The notes beneath the pieces were generated by a model. That model saw only the letters and a program-made list of their open reading frames with translations. It was not told the DNA's origin and searched no databases. Below, one piece after another: positions 1-8,753 of a DNA stretch of 16,297 bases (position 1 is its first letter; every line of letters starts with the position of its first letter). The stretch is taken from positions 1-16,297 of the IMG/VR virus record IMGVR_UViG_3300029033_000070. One strand, given 5' to 3'. This DNA is from a virus. Lineage: Duplodnaviria; Heunggongvirae; Uroviricota; Caudoviricetes. Made by a program: the position numbers and the translations under genes.

Positions 1-55
1 TTATGAATTCTGGTTAAAATCCATTCGATTATAAAAATGTATATCTCATGCTGTT

Positions 56-81
56 GCCCGAACCCACTCGGGCTTTTTTTT
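56..81 (+). terminator. Intrinsic terminator for a plus-strand transcript entering from the left
   Basis: Hairpin gcccga-acccac-tcgggc (56-73) followed by an 8-T run (74-81) on the + strand. It is convergent with the minus-strand terminator at 86-111. Confidence 0.5.
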
Positions 82-85
82 GCCC

Positions 86-262
86 ACAAGAAAGCCCCTC
101 CGGAGAGGGGCTAAAGCCGCGTATCTGTATCATCATGCACATGGTGCCGGGTGCCTCCCGGTGAGTTCAGCCCGGTGCCACTAAACCCGCGTCATTCTCG
201 TTTTGATAATCAGAGATTATACCGTCACCAGTCGCCCCTCCGCTCAGGGGGATTCACCATGC
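86..262 (-). ncRNA. Structured RNA-like element, copy 1 (candidate ~170-nt sRNA with its own intrinsic terminator)
   Basis: On the minus strand: 5' gcatggtg ... hairpin cccct-gagcgg-agggg ... hairpin ccggg-aggca-cccgg ... caccatg, then terminator gcccctc-tccg-gaggggc + TTTCTT (+ coords 88-111). Blocks are conserved with copy 2 while linkers differ. An extended -10-like TGtTAAAAA lies just upstream (+ 269-277). Short ORFs in the two copies are not conserved. Exact ends not determined. Confidence 0.4.
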
Positions 263-355
263 GAAATTTTTTTAACAAATGCCCAGTCTGACAGGCAACT
301 GTCAACTTACTGAATTGTGAGCAACATAGCATTTAACGGGGAACCTGTTTTCTGC

Positions 356-385
356 AGTAAAAAGGCCCACCGGAGCGGATGGGCC
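356..385 (-). terminator. Intrinsic terminator (minus strand) in the spacer between the two RNA-like elements
   Basis: ggccca-10 nt loop-tgggcc hairpin (364-385) followed on the minus strand by TTTTTAC (A-run 357-363 on +). Confidence 0.5.
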
Positions 386-573
386 TGGAAGGATAGCGGT
401 CATGTGATGCCGGTTTCCCGGTAACTCAGCACCGGTATCTGAGTCAACGTTTTCTCTACTGGGTCATTTCCGATACGCCCTGCCTGCTGACAGGCTTTCA
501 TCACATCTGAAAATATAGCACCCTGACTGATACTGTAGTACCCAAGGTTCCAGAAACTGTGATGTATCCGGCA

Positions 574-745
574 CAGAAAAGCCCCTCCGGAGAGGGGCTG
601 GAGAGTGGCGCTATGTGCCATTGCATGGTGCCGGGTGCCTCCCGGTGAGTTCAGTATCAGCACCTGAACCCGCACAGAAAGGATAAGGGTCGGTGACAAA
701 ACACCAGTTGCTGATTGCCCCTCCGCACAGGGGGATTCACCATGC
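574..745 (-). ncRNA. Structured RNA-like element, copy 2 (diverged paralogue of 86-262)
   Basis: Same block architecture as copy 1: closing helix catggtg/caccatg (+ 738-745 and near 620), hairpin cccct-gtgcgg-agggg, hairpin ccggg-aggca-cccgg, terminator gcccctc-tccg-gaggggc + TTTTCT (+ 575-598). Upstream TGtTAAAAG and TTGACT motifs at the same spacing as in copy 1. Confidence 0.4.
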
Positions 746-913
746 CAGTTTCTTTTAACAAACTCCCCGCAAACCAGACAACAGTCAACCGCCTGAATTG
801 TGAGGTATTTAAAAATTTCAACGGGTAACTGATACCCTGCTAATCGCCTGATGCTTTCTTTTTCAGCAACGGGAAAGCAACAACCACCACACCCACCAGC
901 CGCCCATTTACCA

Positions 914-942
914 CAAATAAAAAAGCCTTCACTGCGGAAGGC
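914..942 (-). terminator. Intrinsic terminator (minus strand) at the 3' end of the 65-aa ORF
   Basis: gccttc-actgcg-gaaggc hairpin (925-942); on the minus strand it is followed by TTTTTTATTTG (A-run 914-924 on +). The ORF stop codon lies inside the hairpin. Confidence 0.55.
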
Positions 943-1126
943 GTCTGTAACAACCGAACTGATAGTCTGCCAGACCCGCCATAACCAGCTGGGTCAGTAT
1001 TAACTGGCAGCGTTCGCGTGAAAGGTAAGTATTCTGCGCAATCTCCCCGACTGTCGCCGGGTAGGTGACGCTTAATTCATTAAACACCACTCTGGCGGTT
1101 TCTGTCATATCCTGCTGTTTTAGCAT
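929..1126 (-). CDS. Hypothetical small protein (65 aa from internal ATG), possible winged-helix/HTH fold
   Basis: ORF track 929..1216 starts at a GTG; the internal ATG at 1126 has an AAGGGA ~9 nt upstream. Translation MLKQQDMTETARVVFNELSVTYPATVGEIAQNTYLSRERCQLILTQLVMAGL... looks like an HTH but is not assigned to a family. Sits between two intrinsic terminators downstream of Q. Confidence 0.3.
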   Translation of the reverse strand: MLKQQDMTETARVVFNELSVTYPATVGEIAQNTYLSRERCQLILTQLVMAGLADYQFGCYRRLPQ

Positions 1127-1243
1127 GTCTTTTTCCCTTTTCCGGTTAACGTGACATACCAATAACTCTTGTCTAAAAAGCCAGCAAGCTGAAAGACAGG
1201 TATTCACCACCAGCACGTTTACTGTACTGATGCGATTTCAGTC

Positions 1244-1270
1244 ATAAAAAACCCGCCAGGCGGCGGGTTT
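1244..1270 (-). terminator. Intrinsic terminator immediately downstream of Q (possible tR'-like site)
   Basis: cccgcc-aggc-ggcggg hairpin (1252-1267) with a 6-T run after it on the minus strand (A-run 1246-1251 on +); only TTT follows on the + strand, so it is mainly a minus-strand terminator. Lies ~60-80 nt after the Q stop. Confidence 0.6.
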
Positions 1271-1327
1271 AAGTTGTGTGGCGTAGTAACCACTCTTAAC
1301 ATACTGACATACTTTTTGCGGACCGCG

Positions 1328-1720
1328 CTAATCATTTTTTACTTTTTTGGGCAGCCAGTCGTCCATCTCCAGCCTTACACCCAGCATCGACAGACATCCG
1401 TCAATAAATCCTTCAGCAATCTGCATCTCAATTCGTATTGCCTTTTCGCTCTTCTTTCTTGTTCTGGCAATCTGCCTTTTTGATATGCGCAGCAGATAAT
1501 GAGCTACCAGCAGCGAATACTCGTCCGGTTTTTTCTTCTTCAGGCGCGTAAGGCAGTTTTCGATGATAAGGCCGTCATCATCGCTGCAGGCCGGGCGAGG
1601 TTTAGCGGTGGATGGTAAAAGGCCTTTAAATCCAGCAGCTATCGGAGAATAGTCCACCCCGGCGTTACCACTTGCCGCCCATGCCCCCCAGCGTTCGAGA
1701 ACCATCTGAATATCACGCAT
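1328..1720 (-). CDS. Late-gene antitermination protein Q (phage 82/21/QuuD-like family)
   Basis: Translation MRDIQMVLERWGAWAA...LLVAHYLLRISKRQIARTRKKSEKAIRIEMQIAEGFIDGCL matches my memory of Q82-type antiterminators. The ORF-track start at 1735 is a TTG; the ATG at 1720 has GGAG 8 nt upstream, so 1720 is preferred (130 aa). Confidence 0.8.
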   Translation of the reverse strand: MRDIQMVLERWGAWAASGNAGVDYSPIAAGFKGLLPSTAKPRPACSDDDGLIIENCLTRLKKKKPDEYSLLVAHYLLRISKRQIARTRKKSEKAIRIEMQIAEGFIDGCLSMLGVRLEMDDWLPKKVKND

Positions 1721-1737
1721 CAACTTTCTCCACAAAA

Positions 1738-7605: not shown

Positions 7606-8753
7606 TTGCGCCCCCTTACCTCTGAAGGGTTCAGCGACAAATTTATGAGACTGGCCAGTAGCGCCGCGTCGTTGATGCGGTCATACAGACTTACAGCCAG
7701 CGGGGATTCGGCTTTTGCCAACATGGGATAAAGCTGCTGCAGCCAGACCTTGTGGATTACCGACAGGTGGGAGTAAAGCACGCTGGCGTTATCTGCGGCA
7801 TCGCTCAGCGTGGATGGCTTTGAAAGCAGTTTTTCCATCTGGTTAAAGGCATTGATGTATGCCTCTTTGAACCGGGCAGCACGTTTACCCGTGAAACCCA
7901 TAGCAAGAAACGCAAAACCGTCGCGGGTGATTTGGTAACAAGGGAGTTTGCGGCCTGATGCGTCGGTGTATTCACTTAACACAAAATTGTGTTCAGTAAA
8001 TTCAGCGGAACATTCGAGGTTTCTAATTCTATCTAAAACCCGCTCATGCCGTTTAGTAAAGTAATTAGCTACTGCAAGAGATGTGGTGACAACGCGACCA
8101 TTGATAATCGTGATTTCAGGGTGAGATTGGGTTGGGAGAGTAGTCATGGTGACAGCCCCTATGTTGAATTCAATGAACTCACCACCAAGGCTTTCCACGA
8201 CCATATAGGTGGTGAGACGTACAGGGGTGGAAATACCGGTCAACATAGAACCCGGCCCAACCGAAGTTGGCCCTGCACGCCCCACCATAATTTGGGCGTA
8301 ACGATGCTCATGACACGAAAAAACCGCATGAGCGCGGTTGTGCTCTATATTGAATTTCGGGTTTCCACGCCCGGCACCCGCTTTATAAGGTGCCGGAACA
8401 GTGTAACGTCCCGGAATTGCAGAATCAATATGCTGGTGGTCCTTCACACTCAACAAAATCACGCCTGAATTTCCACAAAGGACTAAAGCACTCATGCGGG
8501 TAGTCTTTGCGAAGATAGATAACGCGCTGTGTTTCTGGCTCCCAACGAATAACATGGACATAAAGCCCTCTTCCGTCACGAAACCAGCGGTTAAGTTCCT
8601 GCACAACTCGCCCCCCACAGTCAGGTAAAGTTCTCTGTGGTTACTTACAGCCAGGTGATTTGGTAATCTGCATTCATGCCGTAACAACAGGTGTTCAGCG
8701 ACGCTGACCACCAGCTGTTGCGACAAACGGTTATTTGCCGTTAAACTATTCAT
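7602..8753 (-). CDS. Rha-family phage regulatory protein with ~200-aa N-terminal extension of unknown function
   Basis: Rha signature ITIINGRVVTTSLAVANYFTKRHERVLDRIRNL...YQITRDGFAFLAMGFTGKRAARFKEAYINAFNQME at aa ~210-300. ATG 8753 overlaps the upstream stop (ATGA), supporting the long form; an internal ATG at 8147 with AGGGG upstream would give a conventional ~181-aa Rha protein. Confidence 0.55.
   Translation of the reverse strand: MNSLTANNRLSQQLVVSVAEHLLLRHECRLPNHLAVSNHRELYLTVGGELCRNLTAGFVTEEGFMSMLFVGSQKHSALSIFAKTTRMSALVLCGNSGVILLSVKDHQHIDSAIPGRYTVPAPYKAGAGRGNPKFNIEHNRAHAVFSCHEHRYAQIMVGRAGPTSVGPGSMLTGISTPVRLTTYMVVESLGGEFIEFNIGAVTMTTLPTQSHPEITIINGRVVTTSLAVANYFTKRHERVLDRIRNLECSAEFTEHNFVLSEYTDASGRKLPCYQITRDGFAFLAMGFTGKRAARFKEAYINAFNQMEKLLSKPSTLSDAADNASVLYSHLSVIHKVWLQQLYPMLAKAESPLAVSLYDRINDAALLASLINLSLNPSEVRGRK

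Follow-up and report, generated by a model that had tools for sequence, protein, structure and literature searches.

Tandem STnc100-family units, probably three small RNA genes, at the moron site of a lambdoid prophage

Introduction

What is the repeated element that lies close to one end of this prophage DNA, how many copies of it are there, and is it conserved as an RNA? The window, by which we mean the whole stretch of 16,297 nucleotides that was analyzed, had been described in a sequence-only reading as carrying two tandem copies of a structured RNA-like element downstream of Q, separated by unrelated linker sequence and matching no known sRNA. The moron site of lambdoid prophages is bounded by the Q-dependent late promoter and the lysis genes. 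For this site 3' of PR', Tree et al. 2014 reported Hfq-bound sRNAs arranged in convergent pairs and named eight lambdoid prophages of E. coli Sakai; EcOnc27 and AsxR make up one of the pairs.

Results

The repeated elements are copies of STnc100

A repeat search of the window showed that the tandem repeat at ~86-345 and ~574-830 is real and far above chance. It consists of a 31-nt exact repeat (140-170 and 624-654), an 88-nt repeat with 80% identity (234-321 and 717-804) and a 28-nt terminator repeat with 93% identity (85-112 and 572-599), and the offset between the copies is 483-484 nt. When the window was scanned with Rfam at gathering thresholds (GA), both copies gave full-length minus-strand matches to STnc100 (RF02076), unit 1 at 291..82 with 165.5 bits and unit 2 at 774..569 with 141.4 bits against a GA of 47. 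Both cover model positions 1-206 and score at 3-3.5 times the GA, which disproves the earlier statement that no known sRNA matches the element. The two elements are copies of STnc100, catalogued as an sRNA family in lambdoid and Shiga-toxin prophages of E. coli; 353 phage records, mostly of Stx-converting phages, contain an STnc100 match.

Members of this family are known as RNAs. In Stx2 phages STnc100 is located ~75 nt downstream of stx2B, and it overlaps the Hfq-binding sRNA EcOnc27 of E. coli O157 Sakai, which is sRNA103 of EDL933 and has been detected by Hfq-CRAC and Northern blot. EDL933 has 11 STnc100 copies with RNA-seq reads, one of which (STnc100_4) was positive in a Northern blot, and SNPs in the stx2-adjacent copy are among the reported HUS-predictive features. 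The likeness of the window units to STnc100/EcOnc27/sRNA103 extends to the four-helix scaffold, the terminator, the moron site in the late operon and a convergent partner of the AsxR type. The core is ~84.5% identical to the 933W copy, while the window units differ from the 933W/Sakai allele in two variable cassettes (B and D, see below), and the EDL933 copies occupy separate genome positions whereas those of the window stand in tandem.

A third, diverged unit between the two copies

The count of two copies had to be revised. What had been taken for an unrelated linker is a third, diverged STnc100-like unit, which Rfam STnc100 in E-value mode matched over its full length at 530..357 with 30.1 bits (E 2.4e-4), a divergence large enough to bring the score below the GA. 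We also used R1, our own covariance model built from 13 STnc100 scaffolds with the middle unit left out of training, which found the middle unit at 506..402 with 35.4 bits (E 3.6e-5), unit 1 at 262..139 with 116.3 bits and unit 2 at 745..623 with 135.2 bits. Since the middle unit has these two matches together with the fold, the terminator and the -10-like motif described below, the array is one of three units and not two. All features below are on the minus strand; pairings are predicted.

82..345, minus strand: STnc100 unit 1 (Rfam, R1, MFE fold, terminator scan)
262..~86, minus strand: predicted RNA of unit 1, 5' end taken from the homologue PasD2
262-255 with 146-139, minus strand: unit 1 closing helix P1
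250-246 with 239-235, minus strand: unit 1 helix P2
188-181 with 170-163, minus strand: unit 1 helix P3
161-157 with 151-147, minus strand: unit 1 helix P4
112..93, minus strand: unit 1 terminator (terminator scan)
TG at 277-276 and TAAAAA at 274-269, minus strand: unit 1 extended -10-like motif
to ~345, minus strand: unit 1 conserved upstream block
357..568, minus strand: diverged middle STnc100-like unit (Rfam, R1, MFE fold, terminator scan)
~507..357, minus strand: predicted RNA of the middle unit
within the middle unit, minus strand: closing helix AUGUGAUG/CAUCACAU
within the middle unit, minus strand: P2 GCCUG-UCAG-CAGGC, P3 GACUCAG/CUGAGU and P4 CCGG-GAAA-CCGG
386..363, minus strand: middle unit terminator (terminator scan)
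520-512, minus strand: middle unit extended -10-like motif TGCTATATT
569..830, minus strand: STnc100 unit 2 (Rfam, R1, MFE fold, terminator scan)
745..~573, minus strand: predicted RNA of unit 2
745-738 with 630-623, minus strand: unit 2 closing helix P1
599..580, minus strand: unit 2 terminator (terminator scan)
TG at 760-759 and TAAAAG at 757-752, minus strand: unit 2 extended -10-like motif
to ~830, minus strand: unit 2 conserved upstream block

A four-helix scaffold followed by a terminator

On the minus strand units 1 and 2 both carry the closing helix GCAUGGUG/CACCAUG(Y) and the hairpins CCCCU-6 nt-AGGGG (P2) and CCGGG-AGGCA-CCCGG (P4) that had been noticed before, and in addition a third internal hairpin that had been overlooked, GGGUUYAG/CUGAACUC (P3). 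Of the proposed intrinsic terminators, the G+C-rich hairpin AGCCCCUCUCCGGAGGGGCU is present at 112..93 and 599..580 and is followed by a T-rich tail, but the U-runs are interrupted (UUUCUUGU, UUUUCUGU), which is suboptimal for termination and for Hfq binding. Nine terminator-like sites were found in positions 1-1400 as compared with 1.6 expected from shuffles, and those at 112..93, 386..363 and 599..580 have the hairpin and U-tail of a Rho-independent terminator, with interrupted tails in units 1 and 2.

When units 1 and 2 were folded separately, the closing helix, the CCGGG hairpin and the terminator were recovered in both minimum free energy (MFE) folds. The CCCCU/AGGGG hairpin appeared in unit 1 and was replaced by an alternative pairing in unit 2, so that P2 is seen in the MFE folds of unit 1 and the middle unit only. 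The fold of the middle unit shows the same four-helix architecture and its terminator at 386..363. All three units thus fold independently into an 8-9 bp closing helix around P3 and P4 and then a terminator, as in the STnc100 consensus structure of a closing helix around hairpins followed by a terminator. The MFE z-scores of the three units are modest (-1.89, -2.42 and -2.77, the last being that of the middle unit).

For counting base pairs across the family a covariance-model alignment was used, since MAFFT, applied to all classes, misaligned the diverged units. The alignment holds 136 matches, equal to 41 distinct sequences, under the four-helix structure. Standard pairs occupy 98.9% of the cells and 18 of the 26 pairs show changes on both sides, although both counts are biased towards this structure by an alignment that was fitted to it. 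None of 500 shuffles attained the observed pair values, and pairing fell to 35-47% when the 3' partners were moved by 1-3 columns. Compensatory changes are clear in units outside the training of the model, namely the middle unit, the PasD class and the dicB-leader class, as exemplified by the change of P4 from CCGGG/CCCGG to CCUGG/CCAGG and by three positions of the middle unit's closing helix that changed together. A four-helix scaffold in a structured non-coding RNA is thus supported by covariation.

These observations also bear on whether the conservation could be that of small protein-coding genes, for example the minus-strand open reading frames 657..821 or 400..699. Such frames do overlap the units, and ribosome footprints have been reported on some of the EDL933 STnc100 copies. 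However, the overlapping frames have no Pfam match and differ between the copies, the scaffold lengths of homologues range from 99 to 127 nt and differ by non-multiples of 3, and the conservation tracks the helices rather than a reading frame. We consider a coding function barely credible, and the earlier judgment that the conservation is RNA-structural and not coding stands.

Some further pairings and likenesses were considered and rejected. A loop-loop pairing of P2 (GUGCGG) with P4 (AGGCA) is kept neither in copy 1, where the P2 loop is GAGCGG, nor in the middle unit, and an alternative pairing of P2 with the near-identical terminator stem (both ending in CGGAGGGGC) is unconserved in the 933W, PasD and middle-unit alleles. 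The closing helix of ~8 bp with three hairpins superficially resembles a tRNA cloverleaf, but there is no T-loop sequence, and neither ARAGORN (tRNA and tmRNA) nor the Rfam tRNA models gave a match in the window.

Promoter-like motifs and 5' ends

The conserved TTGAC(A/T) motif upstream of units 1 and 2 does not have the spacing of a -35 element: 24 nt separate it from TTAAAA, more than a sigma-70 -35/-10 pair allows. At 18 nt upstream of the TGn-extended TAAAAA and TAAAAG of units 1 and 2 we find TTGCCT and TTGTCT, respectively. The -10-like hexamers of both units are without the conserved final T, and a strict sigma-70 consensus scan returned no minus-strand promoter, so that a promoter for each unit, predicted as a weak extended -10, is probable but unproven. 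In the middle unit the extended -10-like motif, TGCTATATT, is of better quality and precedes the closing helix by five to six nt. A sigma-54 GG-N10-GC pattern upstream of the units gave no fit when the sequence was read.

Across 23 upstream classes the T(G/A)TTAAAA block keeps a fixed distance to GCAUGG while the intervening 6-8 nt are variable, which is the pattern to be expected if the block were a -10 element followed by a discriminator. An RpoD ChIP-exo signal has been reported at the STnc100 copies of LT2. The 5' ends given for the units were placed by homology, because the start of PasD2 in strain E2348/69 is the G of GCAUGG according to an RNA-seq estimate. With these ends the predicted RNA is ~170-180 nt long for units 1 and 2, in agreement with the unit length of ~170 nt, the own promoter-like motif and the intrinsic terminator of the sequence-only reading.

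The array lies behind a separate Q-utilization module

To place the array in its surroundings the following neighboring features are needed.

1328..1735, minus strand: antiterminator Q gene (Pfam PF06530 Phage_antitermQ, E 3.3e-52)
1241..1331, minus strand: late promoter PR', qut, tR' and StxS-like short leader (933W homology)
925..1126, minus strand: 65-aa open reading frame (WP_016232130) between tR' and the array (annotation, translation)
839..899, minus strand: 3'-end remnant of DUF3927, ending in VVVVAFPLLKKKASGD and the stop (translation against the intact ABU 83972 gene)
26..78, plus strand: AsxR/AgvB-family anti-sRNA, convergent with unit 1 (Rfam)
56-73 and then T8, plus strand: anti-sRNA terminator (terminator scan)

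The placement downstream of Q at the lambdoid cargo site was correct, with Q at 1328..1735 and the array at 82-830, and the order is Q, PR'/tR', a small open reading frame and the three-unit array, with a convergent AsxR-type anti-sRNA at the last unit. Q is 48% identical to the 933W Q and is annotated in NZ_CP053731 as "antiterminator Q family protein". The 120 nt that follow the Q stop codon show 77% column identity with the 933W region annotated as pR'/qut/terminator and include, as read from the sequence, the hairpin CCCGCC-GCCT-GGCGGG and a T6 run. By this homology, ~1331..1241 immediately after Q is the true Q-utilization module of the prophage.

The module matters for one reading of the array, in which the units themselves would provide the late operon with its Q-utilization leader, a short PR'-to-tR' transcript in the manner of lambda 6S or StxS. 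The likeness is evident: the units are downstream of Q on the same strand, with a promoter-like motif and then a terminator, and StxS and lambda 6S RNA are likewise short terminated transcripts downstream of Q whose terminators Q overrides. Their counterpart in the window is nevertheless the separate element at 1331..1241, directly after Q; the STnc100 units have no qut homologue, and in 933W the STnc100 unit is found ~2 kb further downstream, after stx2B. With the late promoter and tR' at ~1331..1241 the STnc100 units are therefore not the Q-utilization leader, and this identity, which had been our first idea, was ruled out and keeps next to no probability.

The 65-aa open reading frame has its own terminator at 942..925 (terminator scan) and no Pfam match. 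The remnant of DUF3927 marks a recombination junction at which a block of DUF3927 and the array was joined to the present Q module. On the other side the plus-strand AsxR match at 26-78 scores 63.0 bits, exactly its GA of 63, and AgvB scores 43.4 bits, below GA. The element abuts the 3' end of unit 1, and the pair has the "dyad" arrangement of EHEC prophages. AsxR and AgvB (RF02703, RF02702) share the niche with STnc100 and, like it, combine a conserved part with a variable targeting part, but they are unrelated to it in sequence and structure, are only 51-60 nt long and are encoded on the opposite strand.

The late region that had been reported as missing beyond the array only seems so because the window ends there. 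Among the matches listed, the 801-nt array region is 99.6-100% identical in complete E. coli genomes, which continue with a SASA/nanS-p esterase, DUF1378, DUF826, holin and lysozyme, and at least 80% of the region is present in 352 of 5,426 genomes. Carriers of the array include ABU 83972 (NC_017631, positions 1187881-1188680), NZ_CP053731 (positions 4984241-4985041), CP55_Sichuan and STEC2018-607. Orientation was checked for unit-gene pairs within 6 kb at ~130 loci: the units were on the late-gene strand in every pair, esterase, holin and lysozyme were downstream of the unit in every pair, and Q was upstream in 152 of 153 pairs. This strict co-orientation with the late operon could be due to common descent rather than function. 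The location, with Q upstream and late genes downstream in the late region of a lambdoid prophage of Enterobacteriaceae, is that of STnc100 in lambdoid and Stx prophages.

Variable cassettes and tandem arrays

The anatomy of the family was surveyed in 55 distinct units from IMG/VR and annotated genomes, and each unit was found to consist, in order, of a 5' block, cassette B, block C, tail D and the terminator. The 5' block GCAUGGUGAAUCCCCCUGNGCGGAGGGGC is near-invariant and block C, which holds P3, P4 and the 3' strand of the closing helix, is conserved. Variation is concentrated in cassette B inside the multiloop, with at least eight alleles, and in cassette D between the scaffold and the terminator, with at least seven. 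Units 1 and 2 of the window differ in both cassettes. All four combinations B1D1, B2D2, B1D2 and B2D1 exist, with u16 and u38 as recombinants, and therefore recombination within block C is indicated. Some natural units are chimeric and join an STnc100 core to a PasD-type tail.

Reassortment of B and D across the conserved block C is also what one would see if the conserved blocks were mosaic-boundary or linker sequences, kept for homologous recombination among lambdoid phages, with an RNA that has no function of its own. The varied cargo flanked by units (stx2B, DUF3927/TerB and nanS-p) and the DUF3927 remnant at a junction beside the array fit such a role. It would leave unexplained, however, that compensatory changes keep the four helices, for which a DNA-level substrate would not select, and that homologues are transcribed and Hfq-bound, and we find it improbable. 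A more tentative thought, which we offer as possible and would not press, is that the scaffold common to STnc100 and PasD is a modular RNA chassis, the conserved helices of which double as recombination anchors: the B and D cassettes would be shuffled between prophages, the tandem arrays would provide a single prophage with several target specificities at once, and the scaffold would be an older cis module that also occurs in the dicB leader.

Tandem arrays recur in the survey with 2-4 units each. At one locus (L128) four units exceed the Rfam GA, and arrays of three that begin with a different unit are found at three others (L006, L017 and L121). In the published accounts of STnc100, EcOnc27 and PasD we found no mention of tandem units. 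The family is narrow, with four loci in a scan of one genome per species; three of these are on contigs of ~3 kb or less, and the labels of two of the three, Veillonella and Xanthomonas, probably reflect contamination.

Homologues with and without a terminator

PasD1 and PasD2 of EPEC E2348/69 (EcOnc13) are RNAs of 172-173 nt with Hfq-dependent stability and RIL-seq targets. Zhu, Shabalina and Storz (2026) linked STnc100 structurally to PasD, proposed a common ancestor and noted Q as a conserved neighbor. PasD has in common with the window units the 5' strand of the closing helix and P2 (GCAUGGUGAAUCCUCC...GGAGGGGC), P3 with compensatory changes, the -10-like TTAAAA block, the length of ~172 nt and the position, which is between Q/DUF3927 and nanS-p. 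Unlike them it lacks the 3' P4 strand, its tail and terminator are of another kind, and it scores 41.4 bits with STnc100, below GA. The mapped seed of PasD, UGUGAG, is located in its tail, equivalent to cassette D, and is absent from the window units.

[quoted passage not shown] In IMG/VR contigs it is likewise found behind the DicF terminator and ahead of the dicB start codon (45-49 bits). In contrast to the window units, this homologue lacks its own terminator and tail, and it is located within the dicB leader of the early-left operon rather than in the late region. Because the scaffold occurs in this spacer without a terminator, the scaffold itself may have a role in cis. In K-12 we also asked for IpeX (DLP12) and dropped this identity, as R1 had no match in the quuD-nmpC-essD region (positions 572000-579000).

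The dicB leader also speaks for an explanation in which the units act mainly in cis, as leader or insulator modules whose terminators behind tR' would block PR' read-through into the esterase and lysis genes in the lysogen and whose short RNAs would be by-products; the long Q-dependent transcript would be the place of action of the scaffold, for instance as a stability or processing element. It fits this explanation that every unit has the orientation of the late operon and a place between Q and the lysis genes, and that four to five minus-strand terminators follow in series from Q to the edge of the window. On the other hand, discrete Hfq-bound RNAs of homologues build up in cultures that were not induced, and numerous RIL-seq partners are recorded for PasD. 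An element acting purely in cis would have no need of a -10-like block conserved at constant distance to the scaffold, fast-reassorting B and D cassettes suit target recognition better than an insulator, and RNase III is known to cut the dicBF transcript 5' of DicF and outside the scaffold. A mainly cis-acting array therefore seems unlikely to us, if less so than a recombination linker. The RNase III site had also been considered as a feature common with DicF and was rejected, the mapped cut being 5' of DicF and not in the downstream scaffold.

Discussion

Taken together, we read the window at 82-830 on the minus strand as three tandem STnc100-family prophage sRNA genes in a lambdoid moron site, to which we assign a probability of about 75%. 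The interpretation as a structural RNA was right, and the element is an already known sRNA family in its typical genomic niche.

Judging from the sequence and from the homologues, each of these sRNA genes would be a self-contained RNA moron. In the lysogen, transcription of each unit would start from the putative TGn-extended -10-like element, which precedes the closing helix's first base by 5-7 nt, and would run to the intrinsic terminator of that unit to yield an RNA of ~150-180 nt. Its first ~105-125 nt would fold into the conserved scaffold of closing helix and three hairpins for which covariation speaks, and the base-paired 5' end and the scaffold would presumably stabilize the RNA. The cassettes B and D, which vary visibly, are candidate base-pairing regions, through which the three units could address different targets, probably with Hfq at the terminator and U-tail as known for the homologues. 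An Hfq-bound base-pairing action of the window units is thus suggested by analogy with EcOnc27 and PasD. During lytic growth Q-modified RNA polymerase from PR' would, according to established Q biology, override all of the terminators and continue into the esterase and lysis genes.

The main value of the analysis is that a false claim of novelty has been removed; as the family is already catalogued, any Infernal/Rfam-based annotation would label the element. Modestly beyond the published accounts that we found are the third, diverged unit, the tandem arrays with cassette reassortment and the homologue in the dicB leader, none of which changes the classification.

In prophages of pathogenic E. 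coli, STnc100 and PasD are abundant RNAs that associate with Hfq and have no validated direct targets; for STnc100, effects on fimZ and espA have been reported on overexpression only, and no direct target is validated for any member. Experimental handles are provided by the arrays with different cassettes, the reassortment between units and the scaffold homologue in the tractable dicF-dicB spacer of K-12. If the tentative picture of a modular chassis were true, the PR' moron site would house a second RNA family with variable cassettes, beside the AsxR/AgvB anti-sRNAs.

Surroundings of the array in the window

The region between the antiterminator gene Q and the STnc100 array, and the flank on the other side of the array, contain the following features.

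1241-1331, minus strand: pR'/qut/tR' homologue directly after Q, matching the annotated region of phage 933W at 77%
929-1126, minus strand: 65-aa ORF (WP_016232130) between tR' and the array, with its own terminator at 942..925
839-899, minus strand: remaining 3' end of a truncated DUF3927 gene (GVVVVAFPLLKKKASGD*), adjoining the array
26-78, plus strand: AsxR/AgvB-family anti-sRNA, Rfam score 63.0 bits, exactly the gathering score

In phage 933W the StxS sRNA arises from the pR'/qut/tR' region. A hairpin CCCGCC-GCCT-GGCGGG followed by T6 can be read in the homologous sequence of the window, and it is absent from the sites listed by the terminator scan. The 65-aa ORF had no match in Pfam; one STEC genome (NZ_CP075697) has this small protein annotated twice, after a Q gene of the PF06530 type and after one of the DUF1133 type. 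We take the truncated DUF3927 3' end as evidence of a recombination that placed the DUF3927-plus-array block behind a different Q module. The 3' part of the anti-sRNA is conserved, while its 5' region (CGAUUAUAAAAAUGUAUAUCUCAUGCUGUU) is unlike both AsxR and AgvB, and its target specificity may be different.

Three further RNA matches were found in the window.

8205-8292, minus strand: C4 antisense RNA, Rfam 82.4 bits
8317-8393, minus strand: isrK, Rfam 61.6 bits
15888-16062, plus strand: sok antitoxin RNA, 117.6 bits

Since the C4 antisense RNA and isrK matches adjoin, they suggest that the early region holds an antirepressor-control module of the P1/Gifsy type. At the window's far end, the sok match indicates a putative hok/sok-type toxin-antitoxin locus.

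STnc100 scaffolds and units at other loci

In K-12 Qin and in IMG/VR contigs, the stretch from the DicF terminator to the dicB start codon contains a homologue of the STnc100 scaffold, at the following positions.

L132 1456-1581 (NC_000913 1649455-1649580): K-12 Qin
L029 11256-11381: among the IMG/VR contigs

R1, the covariance model built here from 13 scaffolds, gives this homologue 45-49 bits, and the Rfam STnc100 model gives it 38.7 bits, which is below the gathering score. As the homologue lacks its own terminator, it is part of the dicB leader.

Two contigs of ~3 kb or less (L007 and L010), one labelled as a Veillonella MAG and the other as Xanthomonas pisi, contain exact STnc100/PasD motif matches, for which contamination of these assemblies with E. 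coli prophage is the most likely explanation.

Tandem STnc100 arrays were also found outside the window. Four units, all above the gathering score, with two tRNAs upstream, are present at L128 1813-2927 (minus strand), and phage vB_EcoS-813R8 carries a three-unit array (L006 3114-3688, plus strand) in which the first unit is different and a variant of the middle unit, 87% identical, is included. Natural chimeras at L049 13105 and L054 13768 (units u10 and u11) combine an STnc100 5' block and core with a PasD-type tail and terminator, and the boundary between the named families STnc100 and PasD is blurred by such units.
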